DNA from: Candidatus Niyogibacteria bacterium
GTDB lineage: Bacteria; Patescibacteriota; Minisyncoccia; HO2-45-28
Assembly: GCA_016181935.1 (NCBI GenBank)
Contig: JACOYI010000003.1
Span: 35,741-99,740 of the forward strand
DNA length: 64,000 nucleotides
Reading direction: 5' to 3'
The notes beneath the pieces are model-generated. The model made no database searches. It had not been told where the DNA came from and saw only the letters and a program-made list of their open reading frames with translations. The position numbers and the translations under genes were made by a program. Positions within the stretch are counted from its first letter, which is position 1. Each line of letters begins with the position of its first letter. Positions 37,894-63,695 of this stretch are shown one piece after another.

Positions 37894-37926
37894 TTTGTGT
37901 ACACCAACATTATGGCCGAACTTTGG

Positions 37927-39410: not shown

Positions 39411-39434
39411 TGTAATTGCTTATTATTTTTTCTT

Positions 39435-40410: not shown

Positions 40411-40554
40411 TGTAATTGTAATGTTTAATTTTAATGCCCCCGATTTGCCTCGTTCCTCTAAAAGTTGCACAAAATCCGATAAATGTAAACGTCGCGCTTT
40501 AGTTTTTACGAGTCGATCCTATACAAGATTTACCAAAAATGATAGCGTGATTTT

Positions 40555-41256: not shown

Positions 41257-43114
41257 TTTTTCTCAGAACAACGATACTTTCTCTTGTCATCGTTTCTTCT
41301 AGCTCGCCGGCGATATTGGTGGGGGAATTTTTAATTGGCATTCTTTTGCCTGGTATATTGCGTACCACAATATTCTCACAATTGAACCCGATTTGCTCTG
41401 CGAGTTCGGCAATAATAAAATCGGTCGGTAGTCTTACTTGCTTAACTAAACGATTTCCGATAACGAGACAAAAATACTTATTTGGTTTTAATATCTGATG
41501 GGCTTTTTTAAGGCAATCATTTAGTCCGATATAAAAACTCAAAACATCTTTTGCTCTCTTGGGGTCTCGTTCGTCGATCTTTTTTAGAGAATCTTTGAGA
41601 TAATCTGACGCCAATGAATTTCTTAACTCAATGACAGGCTTACCGCCTAGCAACTTGTTGTCAACTCCGGAAGCTTCATTTGGATCATCAAACATATCAA
41701 TCCACTGTGAAGAAAGCCGTGAAAACTGACCGTAGGCGACAGTCGTTCTACTGTCTCCATAGGGTGGGGAGGTGATAATAAAATCAATGGATTCGTCTTT
41801 TATGCCGTTATCTTTTGAAGAATCTCCGTATATAATTTTTGCCCATGTGTTTCTATCAACGTCACGGTAATAACTCTCCATGCCTTTCATGTTGAGCTCC
41901 GTTCTTTTTTTAAATGTGGCTAAAACATCGGGGCTGTGATTTTCAAGATTTTCTTTTTTAATTCTCACAAGCTTAAATTCTCCGCTCTTTGTATTTGACA
42001 CTTTCCTGACAGTTTCACTAAAAGCAACCATGAAGAAATTTCGGATATTTTTACTGGAGATTTCCTGTATAGCTTTTTTTATTTTTGCCAACTCGATGAC
42101 TACTTTTTCTTTAAACCAAAATTCAACGTTATTAAATACCGGCTTCTTAATCTGATTGTTTTTAATCTCGCCGATTTTTTTTAGGAGTTTTAAATACTCC
42201 TTATTGAGAATCGCGGGGTCAATAGGGGTTGTTTTTGTTTTTGCAAGAAAGATGGCAAGTGGGTTTAAATCAATACCATGCGCATTTCGGCCTAACAGAC
42301 GACTCTCAATCAAGGCCGTGCCGGAGCCACAAAAGATGTCGCAAACCGTATCTCCCTTTTTGCTGTAAGTTAGTAAAAGTCGCCTTGCAACGTGAGGGAT
42401 AAACATTGCGGGGTATGTGTGAAAACCGTGAGTGTATGGTTTGGTATTAACTCTTTCAAAATCCCATGAGTAGTCGATCTGTCTTTGAAGTTTATGATCA
42501 GATACTTTTTCTTTCTCGGTTGGCTTTTCGAGATTTCTAATAATTCTTACAACAACACCGCGAACCTCTAACTCTTTTGTGTAAATTGGGAATAGAGTTG
42601 GATTTGCTGGTTGCAATCTGAAACGATCCTTTTCTCGATAAATCCGTTTTAGCGTTGCCTCGTTGTCATTAATAATCGCAACTACAGTTTGTCCGTTATC
42701 AGCGATGTTCTGCTGCCGAATGACAACAATATCTCCGTCATAGATTCCATCGTCTATCATGCTATTTCCTTGCACTCGTAGGGCATAATGATTGCCGAAC
42801 TTTCCAATGTCGTCTTTCGCAACTGTGATTGTTTCTGGAATTTCTATGGCCTCGATGGGCGTGCCGGCGGCAATCGTACCCAAAAGAGGAATTTTAATCG
42901 TTCTGCTGTTTTTTTCTGCCGACATCGCGCGCGGCTGGTTAACCTCGCGCTGTAAATATCCGGCTTCTTGCAGTCTCTTAACATGAAAATGCGCCGTAGA
43001 AACCGAAGCAAGTTTAAAGCGCCTCCGAATCTCCTCTAAGGATGGGGCGTACCTTTTCTTTGCGCTATATTGTTTTATGAATTCCAAAACTTCCTTTGGA
43101 CGCTTTGTTAACAT
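41249..43114 (-). CDS. LexA-like repressor (wHTH plus S24 autopeptidase) fused in-frame to an amino-DNA methyltransferase (motif I FCGSGT, motif IV SPPY)
   Basis: N-terminal ~205 aa: LTKRPKEVLEFI, HLKAL-like helix, IPLLGTIAAGTPIEA (Ala-Gly cleavage site), LRVQGNSMIDDGIYDGDIVV (Ser nucleophile), GQTVVAIINDNEATLKRIY (Lys), VVVRIIRN. The following ~420 aa carry HGFHTYPAMF...DIFCGSGTALIESRLLGRNAHGIDLNP and IDFIITSPPYG. The reading frame is continuous over 621 aa. Confidence 0.85.
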   Translation of the reverse strand: MLTKRPKEVLEFIKQYSAKKRYAPSLEEIRRRFKLASVSTAHFHVKRLQEAGYLQREVNQPRAMSAEKNSRTIKIPLLGTIAAGTPIEAIEIPETITVAKDDIGKFGNHYALRVQGNSMIDDGIYDGDIVVIRQQNIADNGQTVVAIINDNEATLKRIYREKDRFRLQPANPTLFPIYTKELEVRGVVVRIIRNLEKPTEKEKVSDHKLQRQIDYSWDFERVNTKPYTHGFHTYPAMFIPHVARRLLLTYSKKGDTVCDIFCGSGTALIESRLLGRNAHGIDLNPLAIFLAKTKTTPIDPAILNKEYLKLLKKIGEIKNNQIKKPVFNNVEFWFKEKVVIELAKIKKAIQEISSKNIRNFFMVAFSETVRKVSNTKSGEFKLVRIKKENLENHSPDVLATFKKRTELNMKGMESYYRDVDRNTWAKIIYGDSSKDNGIKDESIDFIITSPPYGDSRTTVAYGQFSRLSSQWIDMFDDPNEASGVDNKLLGGKPVIELRNSLASDYLKDSLKKIDERDPKRAKDVLSFYIGLNDCLKKAHQILKPNKYFCLVIGNRLVKQVRLPTDFIIAELAEQIGFNCENIVVRNIPGKRMPIKNSPTNIAGELEETMTRESIVVLRKTK

Positions 43115-43252
43115 GGCTGTGTATTGCTTTTTATCCCGCACTTAAAGTATAATAGAAAATAAATAGAAAGTCGAAAGTCGGGTTATCCCCAGCTTCATGT
43201 GATAAGTTCGATGGGGGTTGAAATATCCTAAAAATGTGATAAAAAATAAGAA

Positions 43253-46110: not shown

Positions 46111-48786
46111 ATGGCGCTTGAAAATCCCGAATCAGAGGAGGGAAAGCCGCTAAAATCCGCGCTCGATATCACGAATAAACGGGCGCGGGAAGCCGCGGCC
46201 GAAACTGCCGAACAAGAGCATGAGGAAGCGGTGGTCCAACACCGGCAGGCGCCACCGTTGATGGAAAAGCCGCCGGAAGAGAAAAAAGAAGAAAAGCCGG
46301 AAACCGCTCCGGAAAAAAGAGCGGGTATGGTAGAACGTGCAAAAGGGGCATGGGAAAATTTAAAACAACTCTCACGCAAACATCCGATATGGACCGAGGC
46401 GCTCCGCACGACGGCGAGCGTTGCCGCGTCCATTGCGGGCATCCGGAGTATTTATGATGTTCCAGAATATTTTAGGGAGCGCTTTGCGGTGCGCGGATTT
46501 CGCGGAAAAGGGGGCCTCGACGCGGCAACCGAGAAACTGCTTGCCGCGCGATGGGAATTGAAAAAGGAAAAACCGGCGGAAAAGCGCGGCGAAATCAAAC
46601 ACGCGATCGCTGATCTGAATCGCCGCCTGAAAATGACGAAAGAGGGCGTGAAAAAAGGTTCGGAACAGCGAACGAAACTTGCCGAAATTTTGCGCGAGAA
46701 TCGGCTTGGAGAAAAACAAGTACGCGAAGAGCGGCAGGCGAAAGTCAAAGAAATTCTCGATAATTACACAACCACCAAGGTAACCGGCATGCAGGCGGCG
46801 CGCGAGGCAATGAACTCGGCGTTCGTGGCAACAGGCGCGTTTGCCCTGCGGCCCGTTGCATACGGGCTTATGGAAGGCGCCGAACGCTATCACCGGTTGG
46901 CAAAAGAAGCGCGAGTCAAAGGCGGCAAGGTAAGCATTGTAAAAGACGTATTGGCGCGGGGCATTACGGAAACGTTCAAGGAAGCGGTCGGAAGGGGCGA
47001 GCAAAAAACGAAATTGGAAAAAGGAATGAGCGCCGTGCGCGCGTGGGGCAAGGTCGCGCGCTATGCGGGTATCGGCGCCACATGGCGTCCGGAATCGGCA
47101 GATGAGATGATCGGGAAGGCGCTCGACGCGTTTTCCGGAAGATTGACGTTCGAGAAGATGGGGGAAAATTTCGTTGAAAATATCAATCGGCTGGGAGATA
47201 CGCTGAAAAAGCCGTTTGAATGGGGGGACGCTGAAAAAGCAGAGGTTTCTGCTCCCGCCGCTACGGGCGTTGCGGGACTTGAAGCCGAGATTTCAGGGCC
47301 CCCGCCGGTCGTTGAAGCGATGACGCCGGAAGTCCCGATCGAGACCGCTGTCGAAGCGGGATTTGTCGGACATTTGGAATACCAAGGCGGAAAATCCGTT
47401 TGGAATGAGGGCGAAAAACAGCTCATCCAACGATTCAAAGAATTTAAAACATTGGGCGGTGAGCGTTCATACATGGCCGATGCGCTCAAAACGTACAACA
47501 TTGACCGTATCAAAGACACGATCGCCGAAAATCCCGAAAAGTACGGTCTTTTGGCAAAAGATGCGAATATTGTGACCGCCGAGCAATTGAAGGGCGTCCA
47601 TTGGGATCAGGCGTTTGAGGATACATTCGGAAAATCGGGGCTCACGAAAGAATTGACGCCGGAACAGATCGAGGGGGTTTTGCGGAGTAATTTGTCGATG
47701 AAGGCGGCGCTTGCTCAAAGTGTTGCGGCGCACGAGGCCGCGCCGTTGATGCCCGCAGCAGAGGTTGCGGGGCCATTGCCGGAGCAGTTGGAATACCCGC
47801 CTCCGAATCCGGATGCGTTCGTTCGCGAACAGGAATTGGTGGATATCCGTTCGGTCGAAGGAGAATCGGGTCTTACGGTGCGCGACTATATTGTGACGCG
47901 GCGGGAATCGGTTGTGGGCGGGATGCGGATCGAGGAAGGAGTCGCGGAAGCGCCATCCGGCCTCAAACAATTCAAAGTGGCCGCGTTATGGAATGAAAAA
48001 GCAAACGAGTGGAACGGCGAACCCGTGGAAATTTTGGATCCGTACGGGAAAACCGATGCGCTTCCGAATGCGGAGCGGGTAGCGACGCTGGATACGGAGG
48101 CGCAACAGGTCATTGCAGACCGGAATCGGGATTTCGGGGAGGCGGAGAAAAATATCATTACCGCGCGCCAAACCGCGTTCGGGACGACCGCGGAAGCGGA
48201 GCGCGCAACATTCGAGCGCCTTACGAAAGATTGGGGCATCGAGCGCGACCGATGGGCATCGGAAGATCCTCTTGAATTTTGGAGAAAAAATCCGGCGCTT
48301 GATACAAAAACCCTTGAAAATATCTTTTTTGTCAATCGGATGTCCGGAAATACGTTGGATTGCGAAGTGATCAAAAAATACATCGATAGCGGTTTTCTTC
48401 CGAAAATTCAGGAAACGCTATCGTTGCCGCAAGCAATGGACCTCGTTAAAATTTTGGAATATCCGGAATCGGCAAAAGTTCCGGTGCTGAATGTCATTGG
48501 CGAAGGGTGGCGGGAGAGCGGGCTTTTTTCGGATGTTGAATGGGAAGTAAAAGACGGTAATCTGAAGATCTCATTCGATGTAAAAAACAATCCGGTGGAT
48601 GTGGATCTGTGGATTTCGCGCGACGGCACGATGGCAGTGGATGGCCACGGCATGCGGAATTGGCATCTGGATAAACCGGCGCCGGTATCGGATGTGAATC
48701 TCAAAGAAGCAATGGATTTTATTGTGCGAAAAGACGGGAAAGGCGCGGTGGCGATCCAGCCGGCGAGCGCCGGCCGAGGCCGTTAA
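46111..48786 (+). CDS. large hypothetical protein (891 aa), charged/alanine-rich, no recognised domains
   Basis: Long ORF with core-like GC. The antisense ORFs are junk. Confidence 0.6.
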   Translation: MALENPESEEGKPLKSALDITNKRAREAAAETAEQEHEEAVVQHRQAPPLMEKPPEEKKEEKPETAPEKRAGMVERAKGAWENLKQLSRKHPIWTEALRTTASVAASIAGIRSIYDVPEYFRERFAVRGFRGKGGLDAATEKLLAARWELKKEKPAEKRGEIKHAIADLNRRLKMTKEGVKKGSEQRTKLAEILRENRLGEKQVREERQAKVKEILDNYTTTKVTGMQAAREAMNSAFVATGAFALRPVAYGLMEGAERYHRLAKEARVKGGKVSIVKDVLARGITETFKEAVGRGEQKTKLEKGMSAVRAWGKVARYAGIGATWRPESADEMIGKALDAFSGRLTFEKMGENFVENINRLGDTLKKPFEWGDAEKAEVSAPAATGVAGLEAEISGPPPVVEAMTPEVPIETAVEAGFVGHLEYQGGKSVWNEGEKQLIQRFKEFKTLGGERSYMADALKTYNIDRIKDTIAENPEKYGLLAKDANIVTAEQLKGVHWDQAFEDTFGKSGLTKELTPEQIEGVLRSNLSMKAALAQSVAAHEAAPLMPAAEVAGPLPEQLEYPPPNPDAFVREQELVDIRSVEGESGLTVRDYIVTRRESVVGGMRIEEGVAEAPSGLKQFKVAALWNEKANEWNGEPVEILDPYGKTDALPNAERVATLDTEAQQVIADRNRDFGEAEKNIITARQTAFGTTAEAERATFERLTKDWGIERDRWASEDPLEFWRKNPALDTKTLENIFFVNRMSGNTLDCEVIKKYIDSGFLPKIQETLSLPQAMDLVKILEYPESAKVPVLNVIGEGWRESGLFSDVEWEVKDGNLKISFDVKNNPVDVDLWISRDGTMAVDGHGMRNWHLDKPAPVSDVNLKEAMDFIVRKDGKGAVAIQPASAGRGR

Positions 48787-48790: not shown

Positions 48791-48835
48791 CCCCAAGGGT
48801 AGTCCTTTTCTGACCCGCAGGACTACCCTTGGGGC
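48791..48835. repeat. REP-like palindromic element, copy 3
   Basis: CCCCAAGGGTAGTCC-TTTTCTGACCCGCA-GGACTACCCTTGGGG begins 5 nt after the stop of the 891-aa ORF. Confidence 0.8.
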
Positions 48836-50572: not shown

Positions 50573-51706
50573 ATGCCCGACTTTTCATTCCTCAAGAATT
50601 TACCGGGTATTCCGAAGTTCCCGCCGTTTTTTAAACGCGAGTCGAGCGTGCTTGGAATTGACGTCGGTTCCTCGTCCATTAAAATCGTTCAGCTTCGCCG
50701 CGAACAAGAGCGCGCCGTGCTGGAGACCTACGGCGAACTGTCGCTCGGTCCCTACGGAAGCGTTGCCGGAGGACAAGCGGTGCGCCTGACCGAGGACAAA
50801 GCAAAAGAAGCGCTCGCCGATCTGATGCGGGAAGCGGGCGTCAAGGCGAAAAGCGCGGTCGTCGCGATACCGCTTCGCGCAAGTTTTGTAACCGTGATCG
50901 AAATGCCGCAAATGGAAAAAAAGGAATTGAAAGAGGCGGTGGAATATGAATTGCGCCGGTATATACCGGTGCCGCTCGCCGAGGTGTTGCTCGATTGGTG
51001 GGTGATTCCGGAAGGATTTGCGGTGAGCTCGGAAGAAGTGGGGGACGAGGGGCTGGTGAAAAAGAAAAAGTTCATTTCCGTACTTATTGCCGCGATCTAC
51101 AGCGATGTGATCGAAAAATACCGGTCCTTCATCACGGCGGCGGGACTGTCCATCGCCGCCTACGAGATCGAAGTGTTCAGCGCCGTGCGTTCTCTTCTCG
51201 GCAATGAATTGGCGCCGGTTCTGATCCTTGATTTCGGGGCGTCGTCCACCAAGATCGCGGTCGTGGATTACGGCATCGTGCGGATGGCGTATTCGTACGA
51301 GCACGGGTTTCAGGAATTGACCGAAAGCATTGCGCGGTCTTTGGGCGTGGATTTTGCCCGCGCCGAAGAAATGAAACGGACGATCGGTCTTTCCGATAAA
51401 CCCGAGCATCGGGAATTGCAAAACGCCATTCTGCCGACGCTCGACCTCATGTTCGTGGAAGCCGGCCGGGTGCTTCTCGATTACCGGCGCCGGACCGGAC
51501 GATCGATCACGCGTGTGATCATTCACGGCGGGGGCGCCGCACTCAAAGGGCTTCCGGAAAAGATCGCGCAGAAATTCGGCATCGAAGTGAATCTGGCGGA
51601 GCCCTTCAACCGTTTGAAATATCCGTTGCTGGTTCAGCCTGTGGTAAAAGAGGTTGGTCCGCCGTTTTCCACCGCCATCGGATTGGCGCTCCGCGGTCTT
51701 AAATAA
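50573..51706 (+). CDS. pilM: type IV pilus assembly ATPase-like protein PilM
   Basis: VLGIDVGSSSIKIV actin-like fold motif. Second ILDFGASSTK motif. Confidence 0.85.
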   Translation: MPDFSFLKNLPGIPKFPPFFKRESSVLGIDVGSSSIKIVQLRREQERAVLETYGELSLGPYGSVAGGQAVRLTEDKAKEALADLMREAGVKAKSAVVAIPLRASFVTVIEMPQMEKKELKEAVEYELRRYIPVPLAEVLLDWWVIPEGFAVSSEEVGDEGLVKKKKFISVLIAAIYSDVIEKYRSFITAAGLSIAAYEIEVFSAVRSLLGNELAPVLILDFGASSTKIAVVDYGIVRMAYSYEHGFQELTESIARSLGVDFARAEEMKRTIGLSDKPEHRELQNAILPTLDLMFVEAGRVLLDYRRRTGRSITRVIIHGGGAALKGLPEKIAQKFGIEVNLAEPFNRLKYPLLVQPVVKEVGPPFSTAIGLALRGLK

Positions 51707-51743
51707 TTTTTTAGTTTTTATATTTTAATTTTTAAATCGAAAC

Positions 51744-52328
51744 GTGCCTGTCGAACAACCCACATTCATTCCCCGAACACCGATCCCGCCGTCCGGCAGG
51801 CGGGGAACGGGTATTGGATGGTTCGTAACGTTCGGTTTTTTGGCGCTCATCGTGTCCGTTTTAATGACGGCGGGGTTATGGCTGTATCGCGGACTTTTAA
51901 TGTCGCAGATCGACGGGTACACCGAAACATTGAAACAGGTGGAAAGCGAATTCGAGCCGTCATTGATCTTAGAATTGCGCCGTACTGCGCAGGCGATCGA
52001 TGTGGGCCGCGAATTGCTGAAAAATCACGTGGCGACATCGCGCCTTTTGAAATTCATCGAAGACAATACGCTTCCCGAAACCAGTTTCTCACGGTTCATT
52101 TATAAAGACGGGACGCTCGTGCTTTCGGGTTCCGCGCGGTCGTACGCGTCTTTGGCGCAGCAAGCGCGCGTATTTGAAGAATCGCCATTCCTTGAGCGCG
52201 CGACGTTTTCGGATTTTACGCTGGGCTCGGGCGGACTCGTGAATTTCCGCGCGGAACTCGTGATCGAACCCGAGCTTATCACTTACACCGGCGCCGCGGG
52301 CGCCGCAACAACAACCCAAGGAGATTGA
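51744..52328 (+). CDS. pilN: type IV pilus assembly protein PilN-like
   Basis: N-terminal TM segment and periplasmic domain, positioned after pilM. Confidence 0.55.
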   Translation: MPVEQPTFIPRTPIPPSGRRGTGIGWFVTFGFLALIVSVLMTAGLWLYRGLLMSQIDGYTETLKQVESEFEPSLILELRRTAQAIDVGRELLKNHVATSRLLKFIEDNTLPETSFSRFIYKDGTLVLSGSARSYASLAQQARVFEESPFLERATFSDFTLGSGGLVNFRAELVIEPELITYTGAAGAATTTQGD

Positions 52329-52329
52329 T

Positions 52330-52875
52330 ATGCGTTTGATCATCGCATCATTATTGTTCGCCTCCTCGATCGCCGTATTCATATTCGGGGTGCGTCCCGT
52401 GTGGCAGGACATCGGAACATTGGGCGCAAAAAAGGATACATTCAGTACGACGATCGAGCGCATCAACGAACTTCGTCGAGCGCGCGATACGCTGATCCAA
52501 ACCTATAATTCCATTTCGCAAACCGACATCCGGCGCGTCAAAAAAATTCTGCCTGATACGCTCAATTCCGGCCTCATTCTCGTTGAATTGTCCAATCTGG
52601 CGTCGCAAAGCGGATTTTTGCTGAAAAGCACGGATGTTTCCGCAGCCGCCGGACGTTCGGGCGCTCCGGTCGTTCGCGGCGCAAACCAGCGTTTTGCCGA
52701 GGTGCAACTGAAACTCGTCGTATCGGGCCCCTATGAGCGATTCCGGTCCTTTTTGCAGAATTTAGAAAAAAACTTGCGCATCATCGATGTAACATCGCTG
52801 TCCTTTACGTCGCCGGGGCAGCCCAGCGCCTCCGTGGATTTTTCCATAGAGGCGAAAAGCTATACACAACCATAA
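52330..52875 (+). CDS. pilO: type IV pilus assembly protein PilO-like
   Basis: N-terminal TM segment and coiled-coil, in the pilMNO position. Confidence 0.55.
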   Translation: MRLIIASLLFASSIAVFIFGVRPVWQDIGTLGAKKDTFSTTIERINELRRARDTLIQTYNSISQTDIRRVKKILPDTLNSGLILVELSNLASQSGFLLKSTDVSAAAGRSGAPVVRGANQRFAEVQLKLVVSGPYERFRSFLQNLEKNLRIIDVTSLSFTSPGQPSASVDFSIEAKSYTQP

Positions 52876-52877
52876 GT

Positions 52878-53171
52878 ATGTGGAAACGAACGCTTGTTTT
52901 GGGGATCATCATCATCGGCGTAGGGGCGGCCGCGCTTTTTTGGCAGCGTTTTTTGCGTTCGCGTTCCGTAGAACCCGTGGTCCGGACGAATGGGCAGGCG
53001 GCAGGTTCGCAAGAATTGCTGACTCTGTTGGGTTCGCTCGAGGGGCTTACATTCGACACCTCATTTTTTGACGACCGTCTGTACAAAAGTTTGCAGGATT
53101 TTTCACCCGAGATTCAGGTCCCGCAAACGCGCGGGTCGCAAAATCCCTTTGTCGCGCCATCCGGCCGATAG
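52878..53171 (+). CDS. small membrane-anchored protein in pilus operon (PilP-position), hypothetical
   Basis: N-terminal TM segment, 97 aa. Confidence 0.4.
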   Translation: MWKRTLVLGIIIIGVGAAALFWQRFLRSRSVEPVVRTNGQAAGSQELLTLLGSLEGLTFDTSFFDDRLYKSLQDFSPEIQVPQTRGSQNPFVAPSGR

Positions 53172-53176
53172 CCCGT

Positions 53177-54886
53177 ATGGACACCGCTTTCGTTGACCGC
53201 TTGGTGGAACGAGGGCTCATCACCGAGCGCGATGCGCTCGGCGTGAAGCGTGAAGCGGCGGACGACGCCGCGTTTGAGCGGTTGCTTCTTGCGCGCGGCG
53301 TTTCCGAGTCGGACGTGCTCGGCGTCAAGAGCGAATTTTACGGCGTTCCGGCATTTGAATTGCAGGGTTCGAAAGTGAACGCCGAAGTATTGAAAAATAT
53401 TCCCGAGGAATCCGCGCGCCACTACCGATTTATACCGCTCGGCATCCGGGACGGCGTATTGGAATTGGGGATGGCGGATCCGTCGAACATCGAAGCACGG
53501 GAAGCGATCAAATTCATTGCGGCCAAAAACAATATCCCGTACAAAATTTACGTCATTTCGGCGTCGGACTTAAACGCCGTCCTTGAGGAATACAAAAGTT
53601 TGGGGGGCGAGGTGACAAAAGTTCTTTCCGAATTCGAGCTCGCGGTTTCCGGAGAAAAACTCACGATCCCGACGCTCGAAGCGGCCGAAAATGTGCTAGT
53701 GGAGGAAGCGCCCGTGACCAAAATGGTGGCGGTCATTATTCGCCACGCGACCGAAGGCAAGGCGTCGGATATCCACATTGAGCCGTCGCGCGATAAATTA
53801 CGCGTCCGGTTCCGGGTGGACGGGGTGCTCTACACCAGTTTGATTTTGCCGATGGCGATCCACGAATCGCTCGTATCGCGGATCAAGATCATGACGAAAC
53901 TGCTTTTGGATGAAAAACGAAAGCCGCAGGACGGCCGGTTCAGCGCGCAGGTGGACCAGCGCCAGATCGATTTTCGCGTCTCCACGTTTCCGACCGCATT
54001 CGGCGAAAAAGTCGCGGTCCGCATTTTGGATCCGGAAACCGCCATTTTATCGCTTCCGGAACTGGGATTGGAAGGGGAGAATCTCTCGGCTGTTGAGGAG
54101 GCGCTCGCGCGTCCCTACGGCATGATCTTGGTCACGGGTCCTACGGGGTCCGGAAAGACGACGACGCTTTATGCGATGCTCCAAACATTGAACCGCGAGC
54201 GCTACAATATCGTGAGTTTGGAGGACCCGATCGAATATAATATTGAGGGCGTCAATCAATCGCAGGTGCGCCCCGAGATCGGCTACACATTCGCGAACGG
54301 CCTTCGTTCCATCTTGCGTCAGGACCCTGATATAATGCTGGTAGGCGAGATCCGCGACAAGGAAACGGCGGAACTCGCGATCCATTCGGCGCTCACCGGA
54401 CATCTGGTTCTCTCAACGCTCCATACGAATGACGCGATCGGGGCCGTTACGCGATTGATGGATATGGGGGTGGAGCCGTTTTTATTGGCGCCGACGCTCG
54501 CTTGCGTCATTGGCCAGCGGCTCGTGCAAACGTTATGCGCCGAATCGCGCGAGCCCATGAAAGTGGAGGGGACGCTCGAAGAGCGCCTGGAAGCCGAGCT
54601 CGCGGATATTCCTGCGCTCATGCGCAAAAAGATCGAATTGCCGAAAGATGTGTATGAGGCGTTGCCGTCCGCTGTGTGCCCCAAGGGTACGCGGGGGCGC
54701 CTCGGCGTATTTGAAGTGCTATCCACGACAAAAGAATTCGAGCGCGTTATTTTGCGGGAGCCGACCCAAGAGGCCATTCAAGCGGAGTTTCGCCGGCAAG
54801 GGCGCCTGACCATGCGGGAAGACGGGATCATGAAAGTACTCGACGGCCGGGTCGGGCTTGAGCAATTGGTGCAGATCACATTGTAA
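53177..54886 (+). CDS. pilB: type IV pilus assembly ATPase PilB/GspE
   Basis: Walker A VTGPTGSGKTTTLYA. GspII N-terminal domain. Asp box and His box. Confidence 0.9.
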   Translation: MDTAFVDRLVERGLITERDALGVKREAADDAAFERLLLARGVSESDVLGVKSEFYGVPAFELQGSKVNAEVLKNIPEESARHYRFIPLGIRDGVLELGMADPSNIEAREAIKFIAAKNNIPYKIYVISASDLNAVLEEYKSLGGEVTKVLSEFELAVSGEKLTIPTLEAAENVLVEEAPVTKMVAVIIRHATEGKASDIHIEPSRDKLRVRFRVDGVLYTSLILPMAIHESLVSRIKIMTKLLLDEKRKPQDGRFSAQVDQRQIDFRVSTFPTAFGEKVAVRILDPETAILSLPELGLEGENLSAVEEALARPYGMILVTGPTGSGKTTTLYAMLQTLNRERYNIVSLEDPIEYNIEGVNQSQVRPEIGYTFANGLRSILRQDPDIMLVGEIRDKETAELAIHSALTGHLVLSTLHTNDAIGAVTRLMDMGVEPFLLAPTLACVIGQRLVQTLCAESREPMKVEGTLEERLEAELADIPALMRKKIELPKDVYEALPSAVCPKGTRGRLGVFEVLSTTKEFERVILREPTQEAIQAEFRRQGRLTMREDGIMKVLDGRVGLEQLVQITL

Positions 54887-54908
54887 CGGAGATAAAAACA
54901 AATCACCT

Positions 54909-55289
54909 ATGGCGAACGGAAAAAAGGTTTTGATCATTGACGACGACGAATTTTTACTGGACATGTACGCGGTCAAATTCCGCGAATCGGGTTTTGATGT
55001 TCAGGTGGCCTCATCCGGCGGCGATGCGGAGGCCGCGATAAAAAACGGTTTCTCGCCTGACGTGATCCTCTTGGATCTTGTGATGCCGGGCATGGACGGT
55101 TTTGATTTTTTGAAATCCATAAAGACCTTGAGACCCGCATTGCATGCCAAGGTCGTCATTCTTACGAATTTAGGGCAGAAAGAGGATATCGATAAAGGAT
55201 TAAAACTCGGCGCCGCCGATTACATCGTAAAAGCGCATCATACGCCGTCGGAGGTGGTCAATAAAGTCAGCGCGATGCTCTCGACATGA
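54909..55289 (+). CDS. single-domain response regulator (CheY/PilH-like receiver)
   Basis: KVLIIDDDE. Phospho-acceptor Asp in ILLDLVMPGMDG. Conserved Lys in YIVKA. Confidence 0.75.
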   Translation: MANGKKVLIIDDDEFLLDMYAVKFRESGFDVQVASSGGDAEAAIKNGFSPDVILLDLVMPGMDGFDFLKSIKTLRPALHAKVVILTNLGQKEDIDKGLKLGAADYIVKAHHTPSEVVNKVSAMLST

Positions 55290-56350
55290 ACGACCACAAA
55301 ACAAAACTCGACGCGCTCGCGATCCAGACCGCGTCTCAAGGCGCATCGGATTTGCATCTGTCCGTAGGCCGTCATCCGGCGCTCCGGATTGCGGGCGTTC
55401 TTTCGCCGCTTTCCTCGGAGCCGTTATTGACGCGCGAGGATACGGAAGGGATGGTGTTTTCCATTTTGACCGACGATCAAAAGGCGCGCCTTGCGCGGGA
55501 TCGGACCGTTGATTTTTCGTATGCGGTGGAAGACCGCGCCCGTTTCAGGGTCAACGCATTTTTTGAGCGCGGATTTGTTTCCGTGGCGTTCCGGCTGATC
55601 CCCGTCAAAATCCCGACGCTTGACGAGTTGAATCTGCCCCCGATCCTTGCGGATTTCGCCCGCCGCCCCCAGGGATTTTTTCTGGTGGTCGGCCCTACGG
55701 GACACGGAAAATCCACGACGCTTGCGTCCATGGTGGACGTCATCAATCACGAGCGTGCGGAGCATATTTTAACGATCGAGGATCCGATCGAATATATTTT
55801 TTCGGACGATAAATCCATTATCAATCAGCGCGAAGTGGGCACCGATGCCGCTGATTTTCCGTCGGCGCTCCGCTCGTTGTTCCGGGAGGACGTGAACGTC
55901 GCGATGATCGGGGAGATGCGCGATTCCGAAACGATCTCGACGGCCGTCACGGCGGCCGAAACCGGCCACCTGATCCTGTCGTCGCTTCACACCAACAGCG
56001 CCTCTCAAACGGTCCACCGCATCATTGATGCATTTCCGTCGGACCAGCAAACCCAGATCCGTTCCCAGCTGTCGAGCACGCTTCTCGGCGTTTTTTCACA
56101 GCGGTTATTGCCGAGGATCTCGGGCGGACGGGTCCCTGCGTATGAGATGCTTATTGCGAACACGGCCGTGCGCAACCTCATTCGGGAAAATAAAGTCCAT
56201 GAGATCGATCTGTTCATTGAGACGAGCTCCTCGGAAGGCATGATGAGTTTGAATCAATCGTTGGTCGAACTGGTGCGCAAGGGAGAGATCACGCTCGAGG
56301 CCGCGCGCGATTATTCATTGAATGTGAAGGGACTCGAACATCTATTATAA
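55286..56350 (+). CDS. pilT: twitching motility ATPase PilT
   Basis: Walker A VVGPTGHGKSTTLAS. AIRNLIRE motif. Confidence 0.9.
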   Translation: MNDHKTKLDALAIQTASQGASDLHLSVGRHPALRIAGVLSPLSSEPLLTREDTEGMVFSILTDDQKARLARDRTVDFSYAVEDRARFRVNAFFERGFVSVAFRLIPVKIPTLDELNLPPILADFARRPQGFFLVVGPTGHGKSTTLASMVDVINHERAEHILTIEDPIEYIFSDDKSIINQREVGTDAADFPSALRSLFREDVNVAMIGEMRDSETISTAVTAAETGHLILSSLHTNSASQTVHRIIDAFPSDQQTQIRSQLSSTLLGVFSQRLLPRISGGRVPAYEMLIANTAVRNLIRENKVHEIDLFIETSSSEGMMSLNQSLVELVRKGEITLEAARDYSLNVKGLEHLL

Positions 56351-56537: not shown

Positions 56538-57746
56538 ATGCTTTTCTACTACAAAGCCAAAACGCGCGAAGGGGAGGATAAATCCGGCTCGATCGAGGCG
56601 GCTACACAGGATTTAGCCGTTGCCGCGCTTCAACGACGGGAATTGATCATCGTGTCGCTCGAGGCGGCCGAAGAGCGCGGTTCGTGGCTTTGGCGCAATT
56701 TAGCCGCATTCGAGCGCGTCAAGGATCGCGACATTGTCATTCTTTCGCGCCAAATGGCAACGCTCTTTGGCGCAAAGGTGGCCGTGGTGGACGCGCTCCG
56801 GATCTTGGTGACCGAAACCACCAACGAACAGATACGCAAGGGGCTTACGGCGGTCGCGGATGATATTCAGGGCGGACTTCCCATTTCGCAGGCCATGGCC
56901 CGACAGCCCAAGATTTTCACCCCGTTTTATACGCAAATGGTGCGTTCGGGCGAGGAATCCGGAAAACTGGAGGACGTACTAAATTATCTGGCCGACTATT
57001 TGGAGCGTTCCTACGATCTTATCTCCAAAGCGCGCAATGCCCTGATCTATCCGTCCTTTGTGGTCGTGACGTTCGCGGTCGTGATCAGCATTATGCTGGT
57101 GGTGGTCGTTCCCCGCCTGTCCTCGATCCTTATTGAATCCGGCCAAGCCGTTCCTTTGTATACCCGCATCATCATCGGGTTATCCGATTTTTTGCGCGTA
57201 TTCGGTATTTTCATTATTTTGGGACTCGTGATCGCGGGCATTGTGGTGTGGCGGTATCGCGAAACTGCGCGGGGCCGTCGGGCGACCGCGCGGTTCCAGC
57301 TGAGCATCCCGATCGTGCGCGACCTGTATCGTCAGCTGTATCTCGCGCGGTTTGCCGATAATTTGCAAACGCTCTTATCGGGCGGCGTGCCGGTGGCGCG
57401 CTCGCTCGAAGTGGCGTCCGATGTGGTGGGGAATGAAGTTTATGCGTCCATTCTTCGCGAAACGCGCGATGCGGTCAGCGCCGGCTCCTCGATCTCCGAT
57501 GCGCTTGCGCGCTACGAGGATGTTCCGCCGCTCGTGTCCCAGATGATCAAGATCGGCGAGGAAACCGGAAAACTAGTGCCGATCCTGGAAACGCTTGCCA
57601 AGTTTTATAACCGCGAAGTCAACAACACGCTTGAGCGCATCGTCAGCTTGATCGAGCCAGCCCTGATCGTGGGCCTTGGCCTCGGTGTCGGCATCATCGT
57701 TGCCGCTATTTTGGTTCCGATCTACAACCTGTCTATTGGGATTTAA
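56538..57746 (+). CDS. pilC: type IV pilus inner-membrane platform protein PilC/GspF
   Basis: Two GspF repeats and three TM segments. Confidence 0.85.
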   Translation: MLFYYKAKTREGEDKSGSIEAATQDLAVAALQRRELIIVSLEAAEERGSWLWRNLAAFERVKDRDIVILSRQMATLFGAKVAVVDALRILVTETTNEQIRKGLTAVADDIQGGLPISQAMARQPKIFTPFYTQMVRSGEESGKLEDVLNYLADYLERSYDLISKARNALIYPSFVVVTFAVVISIMLVVVVPRLSSILIESGQAVPLYTRIIIGLSDFLRVFGIFIILGLVIAGIVVWRYRETARGRRATARFQLSIPIVRDLYRQLYLARFADNLQTLLSGGVPVARSLEVASDVVGNEVYASILRETRDAVSAGSSISDALARYEDVPPLVSQMIKIGEETGKLVPILETLAKFYNREVNNTLERIVSLIEPALIVGLGLGVGIIVAAILVPIYNLSIGI

Positions 57747-57750
57747 GAGT

Positions 57751-57829
57751 AGCCCCAAGGGTAGTCCTTTTCTGATTCCTAAGGACTACCCTTGGGGCTA
57801 TTTTCTGATTCCTAAGGACTACCCTTAAG
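57751..57829. repeat. REP-like palindromic element, copy 4, plus a tandem partial fifth copy
   Basis: AGCCCCAAGGGTAGTCC-TTTTCTGATTCCTA-AGGACTACCCTTGGGGCT followed by a loop-plus-right-arm repeat. Confidence 0.8.
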
Positions 57830-57925: not shown

Positions 57926-58441
57926 ATGCTACAAGCTACAAGCTACAAGCTACAAGCTCGCAAGGGGCTGCAAGCCCGCAAAGGTTTTACGTTGATCGAG
58001 CTTTTGGTGGTGATCGCCATTATCGGTGTATTGGCGTCGGTCGTATTGGCATCGCTCAATACCGCGCGCACCAAGTCGCGCGACGCACGCCGCATCGCGG
58101 ATATTAAACAGCTTCAATTGGCGCTCGAGCTTTCTTTTGATTCGGTCGCTACTTATCCGGCTACTTTAGCGGAGCTTGCTCCAACGTATATTCCGGTGGT
58201 TCCGCTCGATCCCCTTCTCGCTTCCTATAATTACGAGCGGTGTTCGGCTACGGTGTATCATATCGGCGCTGCGCTTGAAGAACCCACGAATCCTGCGCTT
58301 GACTCGGATTCTCGAGGCAACGACACAGACGTAAATATAACGCTTCCTAACGGTTGTACTACATGGGGTACTGACAGTGCTGTTTGTTACACTCCAACAA
58401 CGGGAGGTCAGGGATCTCATTGCTACGACGTTTTGCCGTAA
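57926..58441 (+). CDS. pilA: type IV major pilin (PilA-like) with an unusually long 20-aa leader that contains a heptanucleotide repeat
   Basis: KG-FTLIELLVVIAIIGVLA prepilin cleavage and N-methylation motif. C-terminal Cys pair. Confidence 0.8.
   Translation: MLQATSYKLQARKGLQARKGFTLIELLVVIAIIGVLASVVLASLNTARTKSRDARRIADIKQLQLALELSFDSVATYPATLAELAPTYIPVVPLDPLLASYNYERCSATVYHIGAALEEPTNPALDSDSRGNDTDVNITLPNGCTTWGTDSAVCYTPTTGGQGSHCYDVLP
57929..57956 (+). repeat. (CTACAAG)x4 tandem heptanucleotide repeat inside the pilin leader coding sequence
   Basis: Four perfect units start 1 nt after the ATG and are followed by a degenerate unit CTCGCAAG. Confidence 0.9.
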
Positions 58442-58456: not shown

Positions 58457-59242
58457 GTGGGGTCTTTCGTTTTTCTTCTCGGTTTGATTCTTGGCAGTTT
58501 TGCGAATGTCGTCGTAATGCGCTTGAATACCGGCGAGTCCCTGATCTACGGGGGCTCGCGGTGTTTTTCGTGCTCGCGGCGGCTTCGGTGGTTTGAACTG
58601 ATTCCCGTTGTTTCCTATTTCGCATTTCGCGGCAAATGCCGTTCCTGCGGCGCCGGCATTTCCCTGCAATATCCGTTGGTTGAACTTGCGAGCGGCCTCC
58701 TATTTTTATTTATTTATCTCAAAAGCACCCAAAGTCCGCCAACTGGCGGATTTGAGTGGATAACGTTTGCGCTCACAATAAGTTTCTTTTGGCTTTTATT
58801 GACGCTTTCGGTCTATGACATCCGGCATCAGATCCTGCCGGATATGCTGGTGGGAGCCGCGGCGGCGGCCGCCATCGTGTTTGTGACGGCCCAAAGCATC
58901 CAAAACCCTTCTCTTATCCTTGTGCACGGCTTTGCGGGAGCGGCCCTATTTTTGTTTTTTGGGGCACTTTGGTTTTTTTCGCAGGGACGCTGGATGGGGC
59001 TGGGGGACGCGAAATTAGCGTTTGCCGTCGGCCTTTTTTTGGGGCCGGTTCCCGCGCTCGTCGCCCTTTTTCTGTCGTTTTGGACGGGCGCCGCCGTTGG
59101 TATCGCCTGGGTGCTTCTAAACCGCATCCGGACGCTTAAAATCCCCATTCCTTTCGGTCCTTTTTTGGCGGCGGGTGCCTTTGTCGCCTATCTTTGGGGC
59201 GATATTCTTATCGAGCAGTACCTTCGATTGGTGATATACTGA
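58457..59242 (+). CDS. pilD: prepilin peptidase (A24 family) PilD
   Basis: Cys4 motif (CFSCSRRL...CRSCG) and catalytic Asp residues in TM regions. Confidence 0.85.
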   Translation: MGSFVFLLGLILGSFANVVVMRLNTGESLIYGGSRCFSCSRRLRWFELIPVVSYFAFRGKCRSCGAGISLQYPLVELASGLLFLFIYLKSTQSPPTGGFEWITFALTISFFWLLLTLSVYDIRHQILPDMLVGAAAAAAIVFVTAQSIQNPSLILVHGFAGAALFLFFGALWFFSQGRWMGLGDAKLAFAVGLFLGPVPALVALFLSFWTGAAVGIAWVLLNRIRTLKIPIPFGPFLAAGAFVAYLWGDILIEQYLRLVIY

Positions 59243-59246: not shown

Positions 59247-59942
59247 ATGAATCGAGGGTTTATCCAGCACTACAACGTCGAAATTTTCCGGCGCCTAAAG
59301 CGTATTCGACATTGTAGTGCTGGGTTTACGCTCCTCGAAATGGCGGTGACGGTTGGCGTTGCCGCGATGATCTCGAGTTTGATCCTTGCGAATTTTCCGC
59401 AATTTTCAAGGCGGCTTGAAATGTCGAGAACGGCGCAGGCCGTGGCGCTTTCGTTCCGCGAGGCGGAAGCCGCCGCGCTCGGTGTGCGAGAGTTCACGTT
59501 CAGCGGAGTCGGTTTTTTCCCCGCCTATGGTTTGCATTTTGAAAAACCATCGGCAATAAATGGCGATGGCCGGCAATTTTTTCTTTTCGCGGACCTTGAC
59601 GAGGATCGGCTTTATGATGGAACGAAGGATGATAATTTTGACGGCGAGCCCGATGAGCGCGCGGATATTTTTACGATCAGCGGCGCGCCAAAGATCGTCG
59701 ATCTCTGTTCCGGCAGAAAATCCCGCAGCAGTTCCGCCGGTTGCAGGCTTGACAGCTTGGATATCACGTTCGTCCGTCCCAATCCGGATGTGAAGATCAA
59801 ACGGAACAACGATCCGTTATCCGATTTTTCCGATGCGGAGATCGTCGTCCGGATTCCGACCGGAGAATGCCGCCGCATTACCATTTGGTCGACGGGACAA
59901 TTATCCATTGAGCCGATCGAAATACCATGCCAATTGGAATAA
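59247..59942 (+). CDS. minor pilin/pseudopilin with long leader (…RHCSAG-FTLLEM)
   Basis: Prepilin N-terminal motif. The leader coding region carries a 20-bp inverted repeat at 59265 to 59325. Confidence 0.65.
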   Translation: MNRGFIQHYNVEIFRRLKRIRHCSAGFTLLEMAVTVGVAAMISSLILANFPQFSRRLEMSRTAQAVALSFREAEAAALGVREFTFSGVGFFPAYGLHFEKPSAINGDGRQFFLFADLDEDRLYDGTKDDNFDGEPDERADIFTISGAPKIVDLCSGRKSRSSSAGCRLDSLDITFVRPNPDVKIKRNNDPLSDFSDAEIVVRIPTGECRRITIWSTGQLSIEPIEIPCQLE

Positions 59943-60496
59943 AAAAAGGGTTCTCGCTTCTTGAGACCATTATTGCGATCGCGATTTTGACTCTCGCGAT
60001 GACCGCGGTCTTCACGCTCGTGTCCCGCGGTATACGCTCGATCTCATTGGCGTCCAATGAAATGACCGCATATTTTTTGGCGTCAGAAGCGCTTGAATTC
60101 ATTCGAAATACGCGGGACGGTAATTTGTTGGCGGATGATCCTCCGCGCGATGCATTCGATCCCGATATCTTTGCGGTATGCGAAACGTTCGAGGGCTGCG
60201 TGATCGACGTACACGCGAAAAATAACGACGGTTCTATCGAGTATTGTTCCGGCGGCATTTGCCCGCCGATCCGATTCAATCGCGAAAGCGGTATCTATAA
60301 TCATGATCCGCCGACCAGCGCCAATGAAAATACGATTTTTACGCGCCAGCTCCATATGACGTGCCGGCTACCCTGCGCAGAAACCGATCCGCAGGAGTTC
60401 GAAGTCCGTGTGGTCGTCACATGGCAGCAGCTGGATGCGCCGCGGACGCTTCGGTCATTCGCGCTTTCCGTTGGTTTATTCGATACCGCCTTTTAA
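59927..60496 (+). CDS. minor pilin/pseudopilin (MPIGIKKG-FSLLET)
   Basis: Canonical short leader and hydrophobic N-terminal helix. Confidence 0.7.
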   Translation: MPIGIKKGFSLLETIIAIAILTLAMTAVFTLVSRGIRSISLASNEMTAYFLASEALEFIRNTRDGNLLADDPPRDAFDPDIFAVCETFEGCVIDVHAKNNDGSIEYCSGGICPPIRFNRESGIYNHDPPTSANENTIFTRQLHMTCRLPCAETDPQEFEVRVVVTWQQLDAPRTLRSFALSVGLFDTAF

Positions 60497-60497
60497 T

Positions 60498-61094
60498 ATG
60501 AGAATGCATACCGCCGGATTCACCCAGCACTACAGCGTCGAAATATTTCGGTGCGCGAAGCGCATTCGACATTGTAGTGCTGGGTTCACGCTTCTTGAAA
60601 TGATCGCCGCGCTCGGCGTCTTCAGCGTCATCATCATTATTTTTTCCTCCACGTTTTTGAATCTGCTCAATGCCGAGCGCAAGGCGCAGATCGCCTCGAG
60701 CGTGCAGGATAATCTGCGTTTTGCTATCGAGGTGATGTCAAAGGAGATCCGGACGGGAACCCAATATCAAGTTCCGCCTCAGCCGACGAATACCGCAATA
60801 ACCTTCGTGAACGCGAATGATGAATCGATTACCTATCGCGTGAGCGGTCCGGATATTGCGAATAATCCATGCAGCGATGAGAAGCCCTGTATCGTTAAAA
60901 GCGTGAACGGTGGCGATTTTTTGCCGCTCACCTCCGATCAGATCGCAATCGATGACCTGTTGTTTTTTGTGGGCGGAATTCAGCCGCGCATTCAGATCAT
61001 CATTCGCGCGCGCGCAACCGTTCAAAATGTCGAAACGCAATTGAATCTTCAGACGACCGTTTCCCAGCGCAACATAGTGCGGCCAACACCATGA
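60498..61094 (+). CDS. minor pilin/pseudopilin with long leader (…RHCSAG-FTLLEM), paralogous 5' module
   Basis: The same ~85-nt 5' module as the 59247 gene, with an inverted repeat at 60523 to 60584. Confidence 0.65.
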   Translation: MRMHTAGFTQHYSVEIFRCAKRIRHCSAGFTLLEMIAALGVFSVIIIIFSSTFLNLLNAERKAQIASSVQDNLRFAIEVMSKEIRTGTQYQVPPQPTNTAITFVNANDESITYRVSGPDIANNPCSDEKPCIVKSVNGGDFLPLTSDQIAIDDLLFFVGGIQPRIQIIIRARATVQNVETQLNLQTTVSQRNIVRPTP

Positions 61095-61513
61095 AAGGTT
61101 TTACATTATTAATGACGCTTCTCTATATCACGGCCGCGCTCTCGATCGGCATCGGGGTTGCGCTTTTAGTTGCGGGAGAGGTGGGGCTTTCGGGTACCGG
61201 CCGCGATTCGCAATTTGCGTTTTACGCCGCGGATTTCGGCGCCGAATGCGCGCTCTATTGGGACTTGAAGCATCATAGGTTCGAGATTCCGACAGAAGAA
61301 AACGGTCTTCCGGATCAATTTACGATTCAATGCGGCGGCGCGGGTTTGAATGTATCATTCGTATCCCCGAATAAATTCATATTCGCTTCGCTTAATCCGC
61401 GTTTCGATGTAACATTTGAACGGCTGGACGGGGGCGGCGGGCAGATCACCGCGCGCGGATATGCGGGGCAGGCGGGCCGCCGCGTCGAGCGCGGGCTTCG
61501 AGTAGAGTATTAG
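61091..61513 (+). CDS. minor pilin-like protein (MKG-FTLLMTLLY)
   Basis: Short leader and hydrophobic N-terminus. Confidence 0.55.
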   Translation: MKGFTLLMTLLYITAALSIGIGVALLVAGEVGLSGTGRDSQFAFYAADFGAECALYWDLKHHRFEIPTEENGLPDQFTIQCGGAGLNVSFVSPNKFIFASLNPRFDVTFERLDGGGGQITARGYAGQAGRRVERGLRVEY

Positions 61514-63541: not shown

Positions 63542-63557
63542 CCATGAACCGGAAAAT

Positions 63558-63695
63558 CCTTTTCGGAGGCCCCGCAGGCGCTTTGCAAGGTGTTTTTTGG
63601 CTACAATTGCGCGAAGCGAGCCAAAAAACAAAGCGCCGAGGACGGAGCATGAGCGTCGCCGGACGCTCATGCGTACTCCGAAAAGGATTTTTAAG
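63558..63695 (+). repeat. ~135-nt structured repeat element, copy B (upstream of gatC)
   Basis: P1 TCGGAG/CTCCGA, P2 TTTTTTGG/CCAAAAAA with a different loop, P3 GCATGAGCG/CGCTCATGC. Same conserved linkers as copy A. Confidence 0.7.

Follow-up and report, generated by a model that had tools for sequence, protein, structure and literature searches.

The 64-kb window analysed here (the whole stretch of DNA under study) belongs, according to the source names of its proteins, to an uncultured Candidatus Niyogibacteria bacterium of the Patescibacteria, or Candidate Phyla Radiation (CPR), and holds a complete type IV pilus gene cluster (Table 1). Four minor pilin or pseudopilin genes (starting at 59247, 59927, 60498 and 61091) stand in a row there, followed downstream by ligA and then gatC. 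The first and the third of them, termed gene 1 and gene 2, share a hairpin module at their 5' ends, and this module is the subject of the present work. Probably it represents two copies of a 62-nt non-autonomous element of the MITE kind (short for miniature inverted-repeat transposable element), inserted at the prepilin cleavage junction and encoding a peptide that would be removed together with the leader. The sequence of the module was identical in three independent Logan assemblies, and it is therefore no assembly artefact.

Table 1 Features of the pilus gene cluster in the window and elements at prepilin junctions of other Parcubacteria genomes. A slash marks the cleavage point; positions outside the window are those of the elements within the respective locus.
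Feature	Location	Position (strand)	Description
PilM, PilO, PilB and PilT-type ATPases	window	50573-56350	
PilC	window	starts 56538	
Major pilin	window	57926..58441 (+)	junction GGTTTTACGTTG without element; leader expanded by other repeats
PilD prepilin peptidase (A24)	window	58457..59242 (+)	PF06750 4.7e-31, PF01478 1.7e-14
Minor pilin gene 1	window	59247..59942 (+)	231 aa; NCBI MBI2038931.1; leader 26 aa vs ancestral 4 (MNRG)
Upstream duplication copy TTTA, gene 1	window	59259..59262 (+)	with preceding GGG, old and now non-functional Gly-Phe codons
Element copy 1 (type A, 62 nt)	window	59263..59324 (+)	TCCAGCACTACA...TGTAGTGCTGGG; encodes (I)QHYNVEIFRRLKRIRHCSAG in gene 1 leader
Downstream duplication copy TTTA, gene 1	window	59325..59328 (+)	completes functional junction GGG/TTT ACG (G/FT)
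Intervening minor pilin	window	59927..60496 (+)	junction GGGTTCTCGCTT unoccupied; no TTYA in register
Minor pilin gene 2	window	60498..61094 (+)	198 aa; NCBI MBI2038933.1; leader 29 aa vs ~7 (MxxHTAG)
Upstream duplication copy TTCA, gene 2	window	60519..60522 (+)	exact 4-nt repeat
Element copy 2 (type A, 62 nt)	window	60523..60584 (+)	CCCAGCACTACA...TGTAGTGCTGGG; encodes QHYSVEIFRCAKRIRHCSAG in gene 2 leader
Downstream duplication copy TTCA, gene 2	window	60585..60588 (+)	completes functional junction GGG/TTC ACG
PilX-like pseudopilin	window	61091..61513 (+)	junction GGTTTTACATTA unoccupied
First minor pilin	L032 (aquifer metagenome)	1478-1557	MNKGF-(28 aa)-TLLEM; 80 nt, TCCCGTTAGTAAG...CTTACCAGCGGGA, duplication TTTA
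Third minor pilin	L032	2652-2731	MIMDKRGFT-(28 aa)-LIEL; 80 nt, duplication TTCA
First minor pilin	L034	386-465	MSKGFT-(26 aa)-LVEL; 80 nt, related element
Third minor pilin	L035	4556-4635	MNKNGFT-(26 aa)-LLEM; 80 nt, related element
Middle minor pilin	L030		MKLAKNKEGF-APHFY...SCAKSAG/FTLLE; 59 nt, CCCCGCACTTTT and AAAAGCGCGGGG termini, decayed duplication

A first-pass annotation of this DNA had described a 20-bp stem with a ~20-nt loop in the genes at 59247 and 60498, and both copies were indeed present there, each folding into a stable but imperfect hairpin with a stem of ~20 bp and a 22-nt loop. The computed energy of the element alone was −31.2 kcal/mol for copy 1 and −37.2 kcal/mol for copy 2, and the fold z-scores in 121-nt contexts were −5.0 and −4.1, compared with −0.2 for the control pilin at 59927; no comparable fold was observed at the major pilin or at the neighbouring pilin. 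The window contained four matches to the arm pattern CCAGCACTACARCGTCGAAAT, one for either arm of both copies, with 0.00 expected from shuffles, and the direct repeat pair covers 59256-59359 and 60516-60619, 1,260 nt apart. The two copies of this type, designated type A, are the only ones in the 64 kb, and both are located in one operon. Within the 62-nt element the copies are identical at 53 of 62 positions (85%), which qualifies the ~90% identity over ~85 nt reported earlier; the remainder of that stretch is the generic FTLLEM-coding N-terminus of a pilin. Similarly, the described conservation at synonymous positions holds for the stems, where 2 of 40 nt differ, but not for the loop with 7 differences in 22 nt (Fisher p = 0.007). 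The mature domains, regarded as unrelated, do align, although over the N-terminal 26-29% only, and the pilin between the two genes has the short leader ascribed to it (MPIGIKKG/FSLLE).

The ends of both copies unveiled the typical traces of an insertion. Their terminal inverted repeats match at 12 of 13 positions in copy 1 and perfectly (12/12) in copy 2, and only one register is exact in both copies, namely a 62-nt element YCCAGCACTACA...TGTAGTGCTGGG plus a 4-nt duplication. The duplicated letters differ by copy (TTTA in gene 1, TTCA in gene 2), with both flanks matching the Phe codon of the respective gene, which fits a target duplication at a staggered cut, unlike copying from the other gene. 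In gene 1 the repeated letters form a longer unit of 7 nt (GGGTTTA, period 66). Element and duplication together comprise 66 nt, i.e. 22 codons, and the sole frame which is open in both copies encodes 20 residues (QHY.VE...CSAG); since the element is palindromic, the same frame is open in either orientation. The following structural hallmarks of a MITE were found: a short length without a transposase open reading frame (ORF), inverted repeats reaching the ends, a flanking duplication and presence/absence polymorphism. An insertion with terminal inverted repeats and target duplication explains the whole pattern of the shared module. The earlier impression of a discrete, non-random unit with a stable hairpin was correct, and so was the general idea of recombination or DNA mobility.

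Furthermore, the sites without the element are preserved in relatives. Homologue searches with both pilins yielded 57 relatives, and the leader was short in 57/57, the orthologue leaders comprising 4-9 aa. The nearest relatives of gene 1 begin with MNRG/FTLLEM or MG/FTLLEM and those of gene 2 with MKTHTAG/FTLLEM and similar, while the window proteins read MNRGF-(22 aa)-TLLEM (gene 1) and MRMHTAGFT-(22 aa)-LLEM (gene 2). On the nucleotide level, the empty site ATGAACCGGGGCTTTACGCTT of the gene 1 orthologue corresponds to ATGAATCGAGGGTTTA-(62 nt)-TTTACGCTC in the window, and ACCGCCGGATTTACGCTT of the gene 2 orthologue to ACCGCCGGATTCA-(62 nt)-TTCACGCTT. The gene 1 site is empty in the orthologues of L011 and L014, the gene 2 site in those of L011 and L013 (ACCGCCGGATTTACGCTTCTTGAAATG in the latter). 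L011 (GCA_016177385.1) is fully syntenic with the window, including pilC, the major pilin, pilD, four minor pilins, ligA, gatC and gatA, and both of its sites are empty. Related genomes had been named as the place to look for further copies of the module; 0 of the 57 orthologues of the window pilins carries it. Filled and empty genes can be closely similar, as was found in two further genomes: the filled pilin of L034 (P0050) is 92.6% identical to its empty orthologue (P0051, MSRG/FTLVEL), and the filled pilin of L032 (P0045) is 87.4% identical to P0042, whose leader is exactly the predicted MNKG. Judged from these alignments, the insertion is demonstrated: the long leaders are not ancestral, the module is not a conserved regulatory hairpin, and the extra 22 residues are a recent insertion of DNA. 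The leader described as atypically long is thus long indeed, but it does not represent a leader type as such and consists of an ordinary short leader plus a 66-nt insertion.

The recurrence of the architecture at the same junction was demonstrated by four other Parcubacteria genomes (Table 1). In total, seven instances were identified in 5 genomes (the window, L030, L032, L034 and L035), comprising three sequence types of 59, 62 and 80 nt. Each of the seven follows GGN-TTY-A at the Gly-Phe-Thr junction, and the register is identical throughout. An exact duplication of TTTA or TTCA, each fitting the local Phe codon, is present in 6/7 instances, the one of L030 being decayed. The three lengths all equal 2 mod 3, and the sum of element and duplication is a multiple of three in 7/7, which are also free of stop codons; the encoded peptides are net basic and the last codon is GGG or GGA, both again in 7/7. 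The terminal inverted repeats match at 11-13 of 13 positions across the seven instances, with YCCNG...CNGGR as the common termini of the three types, and the 13-bp repeat is kept via compensatory changes (GTAAG/CTTAC, GTGAG/CTCAC, GAGAG/CTCTC). For the repeat of the 80-nt family, 96% of the cells are paired compared with 35-52% in slid controls, and three pairs are changed on both sides. The elements of L032 and L030 recur in assemblies from other samples. Gene callers had started P0045 and P0050 at an ATG inside the element, whereby their leaders look like ordinary ones of 19 aa. Two minor pilins of L028 (850-960 and 1500-1620) have apparent leaders of 33-59 aa with tandem and inverted repeats, e.g. 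CCACATGATGAATAC twice plus an inverted partner; these misfit the model of terminal repeats plus duplication and may be another kind of leader expansion.

The hairpin had been suggested to gate translation. It is self-contained, however, and the Shine-Dalgarno/start region (−18..+13) was no costlier to open with the element (13.8 kcal/mol in gene 1, 8.7 kcal/mol in gene 2) than after its deletion in silico (17.4 and 8.8 kcal/mol, respectively) and thus is free in both genes. More generally, the hairpin might be a functional cis-regulatory RNA which tunes the minor-pilin stoichiometry via translation, mRNA stability or processing. The significant z-scores, the stems being more conserved than the loop, and the fact that both stem differences keep RNA pairing (U.G to C-G; A-U to G.U) are in line with such a role, as is the presence, in two genomes, of analogous elements in the first minor pilin and in the third. 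In gene 1 windows reaching +20 (−4..+20) cost ~6 kcal/mol more to open with the element, because the latter begins at +17, but in gene 2 it starts at +26 and has no effect. A regulatory RNA is also hard to reconcile with the absence of the module from all 57 orthologues including the syntenic relative, with the weak folding of the 59- and 80-nt types (−15 to −26 kcal/mol, AT-rich unstructured interiors) and with the imperfect stem cells (six G.T vs four A.C), which correspond to a neutral DNA inverted repeat and not to selection on the RNA level. No Rfam family reached the gathering threshold, with noise alone at E <= 10, and the target duplication would be left unexplained. Consequently, we regard this explanation as quite unlikely, although early elongation or mRNA stability may be affected secondarily by the hairpin.

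The module had also been proposed to be a site for swapping minor-pilin cassettes. The data speak against this proposal, as the copies are direct, the cluster contains no recombinase and none of the three assemblies shows a rearrangement; within the window a recombinase, of the large serine type, was seen solely in a tRNA-flanked island 22 kb away. By the same two features, the direct orientation of the copies and the lack of a recombinase gene in the locus, the arrangement differs from a shufflon. A different form of exchange would be a single insertion per genome, followed by spread to the paralogue through gene conversion or template switching via the homology of the sequences coding for G-F-T-L-L-E. 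The two copies of one genome do occupy homologous positions of paralogues ~1.2 kb apart with ~20 nt of homology on the 3' side, and in the copies of L032 the internal 54 nt differ at one position and the termini at six, as homogenisation predicts. On the 5' side, however, the homology amounts to just 4-8 nt, the flanking repeats fit the Phe codon of their own gene and not that of a donor, the window copies are 15% different (mostly in the loop), and the three sequence types at one site across genomes are left unexplained. As the origin of the second copies this route appears unlikely, whereas gene conversion between resident copies probably also occurs in L032.

With respect to the prepilin, a class III signal peptide consists of a hydrophilic leader ending in Gly, followed by ~21 hydrophobic residues with Glu5, and the leader length ranges from 6 to 26 aa, with ~15-30 aa in type IVb (PMC4471445). 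The expanded leaders of the window conform to this scheme: Gly stands at −1 and Glu at +5, and 20/21 residues are hydrophobic or neutral. With 26 and 29 aa they are at the upper edge of the known range and inside that of natural type IVb leaders, and their net charge is +5 and +4, up from +1. The N_methyl Pfam profile scored below its 21.2-bit gathering cut-off for gene 1 (E = 1.1e-3, 18.8 bits) and above it for gene 2 (E = 4.4e-5, 23.3 bits). In all seven instances the Gly that precedes the functional cleavage point (−1) comes from the element. The upstream relic G/F is an implausible substrate, because eight charged residues (His included) come after it and position +5 is Tyr. By the rules for class III signal peptides (PMC4471445), PilD would remove the element peptide together with the leader, leaving the mature pilin unchanged. 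For the 80-nt family dN/dS (the ratio of nonsynonymous to synonymous substitution rates) is 0.87-1.25, and the nucleotide identity (79%) exceeds the amino-acid identity (54%), by which measure the sequence of the element peptide is not under selection.

These values also bear on the question whether the insert is selected on the protein level, as a leader extension that alters membrane insertion, timing or PilD efficiency, in the case of the 80-nt type via an alternative start codon. In favor of this, 7/7 peptides are net basic and end in Gly, the net charge rises from +1 to +4 or +5, the leader of the major pilin in the window is likewise expanded (by unrelated repeats), and each of the four 80-nt elements has retained ATG as codon 8, in frame and with a Lys-rich stretch behind it that resembles a natural leader. 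A dN/dS of ~1 in the 80-nt family speaks against it, however, as do the sporadic distribution and 93%-identical relatives with empty sites; moreover, a survivorship filter on selfish insertions would also yield basic charge and a terminal Gly. We therefore consider protein-level selection very unlikely. Still further from credible is a programmed translational bypass, in which the ribosome takes off at the upstream Gly-Phe, skips the hairpin and lands at the matched downstream codons. Matched GGN-TTY codons do flank a hairpin-forming mobile insert within coding sequence, and mobile inserts of 27-55 nt serve as precedents (PMC5009743; bioRxiv 10.1101/2022.08.31.505936), but the take-off codon is followed by no stop or unusable codon, the target duplication trivially explains the matched codons, and to be in frame and stop-free, as 7/7 inserts are, would be a needless constraint if they were skipped. 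Bypass was rejected on the grounds that there are no stops and all inserts are in frame.

The restriction to a single site was analyzed by two scans. A scan of 22 prepilin junctions, with thresholds of >=9/12 for the match between the terminal repeats and of >=4 nt for an exact duplication and with the Gly codon as the required end of the element, selected four, namely the two of the window and the two of L032. A motif-free scan of 91 kb of Parcubacteria DNA (1,666 TTYA sites) recovered the seven junction elements, and every element with a duplication was situated at a prepilin junction, with no spread over unrelated genes. The window holds 1,077 TTYA and 13 TTYACGCT, and the 11-mers GGNTTYACGCT and TTYACGCTYCT occur at the two occupied sites only. 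The bias might originate from an insertion machinery which recognises the junction or from the purging of insertions elsewhere; probably both apply. Inside pilD of L011 (1162-1208) the motif-free scan also picked up a hairpin, a 47-nt sequence with 13/13 complementary ends of the YCCNG...CNGGR type and no flanking duplication, which could be chance or a relic.

Several results weigh against a transposable element specialised on this site, or against the MITE interpretation as a whole. The additional loci were picked for oddly long or truncated annotated N-termini, which biases the frequencies, and the similarity among the three types beyond their termini is not significant (z <= 2.5), leaving a common origin unproven. 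The duplication register is ambiguous (4-9 nt, with a direct repeat of 7-9 nt in some copies) because the terminal GGR of the element mimics the target Gly codon, and long direct repeats also fit a microhomology-dependent mechanism; the distribution of differences in the L032 copies, as described above, hints at gene conversion. Neither transposase domains (among ~50 ORFs) nor a full-length parent or further terminal-repeat matches were detected in the 64-kb window. The type A outer-stem pattern had 0 matches in GTDB representative genomes, and none of its 7 matches in JGI metagenomes was related, these being palindromes at contig ends, an AT-rich hairpin and coding sequence matched by chance; the type A pattern had 0 matches in IMG/VR.

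Further searches gave a similar picture. The single-arm pattern matched 13 times in genomes, in every case as chance FDVVVL-type coding without a partner arm, and the type A pattern was found in no phage and in plasmids as one 31-nt chance match. Exhaustive searching of 1.84 billion representatives with the leader profile (HMMER) produced no hit at E <= 0.001, a weakly informative result given the 50% clustering, which may mask leader variants, and the sub-threshold score of a 20-aa match. IS200/IS605 elements make no target duplication. Together with integron attC sites and REP/RAYT elements, elements of this type were set aside on the basis of their generally known features, as the core motifs misfit and a duplication is present. 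In the literature searched, prepilin leaders were nowhere described as carrying mobile elements, and no paper tying MITEs to Patescibacteria biology was found.

Taken as a MITE-like insertion, the process may be pictured as follows. A non-autonomous element with 12-13-bp inverted repeats would insert after GGN-TTY-A with a 4-bp duplication, its insertion machinery presumably recognising the conserved sequence of the junction. Because element and duplication are a multiple of three, the frame is stop-free in either orientation and the terminal codon is Gly, an intact prepilin would result, with a longer and more basic cytoplasmic leader and a rebuilt G/F site. Cleavage by PilD at the downstream G/F would discard the element-encoded peptide, and the junction would be a safe harbour in which insertion is nearly neutral. 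The mRNA hairpin would then be a by-product, and in gene 1 it would affect early elongation modestly at most. On this account, the element would belong to a wider set of small elements (59, 62 and 80 nt) which occupy the junction in minor pilin genes of at least 5 Parcubacteria genomes. A more far-reaching form holds that the CPR possess tiny transposable elements specialised on the class III cleavage junction, which recognise the conserved Gly-Phe-Thr coding sequence of all pilin genes and whose construction (length 2 mod 3, no stop in either orientation, basic peptide, final Gly codon) lets the host peptidase remove their product, rendering the insertion phenotypically silent. This specialisation we put forward tentatively, as a possibility with somewhat less than even chances.

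The closest precedent for in-frame MITE insertion are the Rickettsia palindromic elements (RPEs; Ogata et al. 2000; PMC10969869). Compared by description, both are small palindromic mobile repeats which lie in frame within genes and contribute an ORF while the host protein stays functional. RPEs, however, comprise ~95-150 bp and reside in many unrelated genes and in structured protein parts, whereas the pilin elements of 59-80 nt are located in 7/7 cases at one nucleotide of the prepilin G/F junction, with their peptide in the removed segment. With bacterial MITEs such as Correia, ERIC, BOX/RUP and Nezha they share terminal repeats, a duplication, the lack of a transposase, hairpin transcripts and presence/absence polymorphism (PMC10969869), but 62 nt is at the extreme small end and the target restriction is unusually strict. 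The inserts of T4 gene 60 and of Magnusiomyces capitatus mitochondria are likewise short mobile hairpins in coding sequence with matched Gly codons and an effect that is neutralised post-transcriptionally (PMC5009743). These bypass inserts contain stops or disrupt the frame and are neutralised by ribosome hopping, whereas the pilin elements are translated through and would be neutralised by leader cleavage. The window proteins resemble type IVb prepilins (PMC4471445) in leader length (26 and 29 aa), in the final Gly of the leader and in the FTLLEM hydrophobic helix with Glu5 behind it, but a long leader is no family trait here, the orthologues having 4-9 aa.

Inteins and self-splicing introns are selfish insertions at highly conserved targets whose product is removed, leaving the host function unharmed. 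As far as general knowledge allows the comparison, the pilin elements resemble them in persistence through product removal and in the conserved target; they differ in having no self-splicing and no homing endonuclease, removal presumably being left to the host prepilin peptidase. The data thus suggest selfish DNA sheltering in a part of a protein that the cell discards. If the junction-specialised form of this explanation is true, it would represent a new route of persistence for mobile DNA in extremely streamlined, gene-dense genomes, within the discarded part of a multi-copy protein family, and would correspond, at the post-translational level, to introns and inteins, the 'splicing' being done by the host leader peptidase. 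The prepilin leaders of these bacteria tolerate 20-28 extra residues and provide natural variants regarding the needs of PilD recognition. Database N-termini hide such insertions through starts at internal ATGs, which makes statistics of CPR pilin leader lengths unreliable. CPR pili are thought to mediate host attachment and DNA uptake, and an effect on minor-pilin dosage could matter ecologically.

The leader of the major pilin is expanded in another way. It comprises 20 aa (MLQATSYKLQARKGLQARKG/F; window 57926-57985) compared with 9 aa (MFYKEKSRG/F) in the syntenic orthologue. Directly after its ATG, at 57928-57955, there is a (GCTACAA)x4 heptanucleotide tandem repeat, followed by an imperfect 18-nt tandem duplication that yields LQARKG twice. 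As the 7-nt unit is no multiple of three, gain or loss of units would alter the reading frame, and the repeat is a candidate for a slipped-strand phase-variation switch, which we presume to be akin to that of Neisseria opa. Searches for PilC, PilT and the major pilin, meant for a comparison of the repeat number across samples, yielded no records.

Position 59055 of the window, inside pilD, is the shared first base of Logan contigs from three samples. A second Niyogibacteria species (L012), whose pilin junctions are empty, co-occurs in SRR12113420; it equals L011 in both pilin 5' regions compared and encodes the same P0036. The contig break at 59055 probably reflects k-mers common to the two species in conserved pilD sequence.

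Two further repeat families were observed in the window. A second palindromic repeat, CCCCAAGGGTAGTCCT...AGGACTACCCTTGGGG, is found at 48791-48834 and 57745-57826, where it forms highly stable hairpins (z = −7.2 and −8.0) just downstream of the ORF at 46111-48786 and of pilC, respectively, with a partial extra direct copy at 57800-57826; it looks like a repeated terminator-like element. A 73-nt repeat at 32839-32911 and 63618-63690 (within the regions 32800-32920 and 63550-63695) is 81% identical and forms an internal hairpin with compensatory changes (GCTTGAAT.../...ATTCAAGC vs GCATGAGCG.../...CGCTCATGC). Its copy in the ligA-gatC intergenic region adopts a long multi-helix fold (−76 kcal/mol, z = −8.2) and had no Rfam match; the repeat may correspond to a small RNA or to a repeat element of another kind.

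The region 35300-43200 is a probable integrated element. A tRNA gene at 35965-36051 borders directly on its large serine recombinase (36052-37893, minus strand), and duplicated tRNA fragments are present nearby at 35307-35371/35424-35488 and 35994-36055/36129-36187. A helix-turn-helix protein, an MvaI/BcnI-type restriction endonuclease (40555-41256) and a fusion of a DNA methylase with a LexA/S24 peptidase (41249-43141) follow. A LAGLIDADG-like ORF at 8739-9404 (domain ~8757-8981, minus strand) is positioned directly downstream of an 83-nt tRNA call at 9322-9404 (minus strand), with which it shares one open frame. Finally, between 22888 and 27919 a PrkA-type kinase (22888-24996) and, on the other side of one ORF, a SpoVR-like protein (26177-27919) are encoded, an arrangement which we take to resemble the yeaG-yeaH-ycgB stress operon and which, by our estimate, is somewhat unexpected in a reduced CPR genome.

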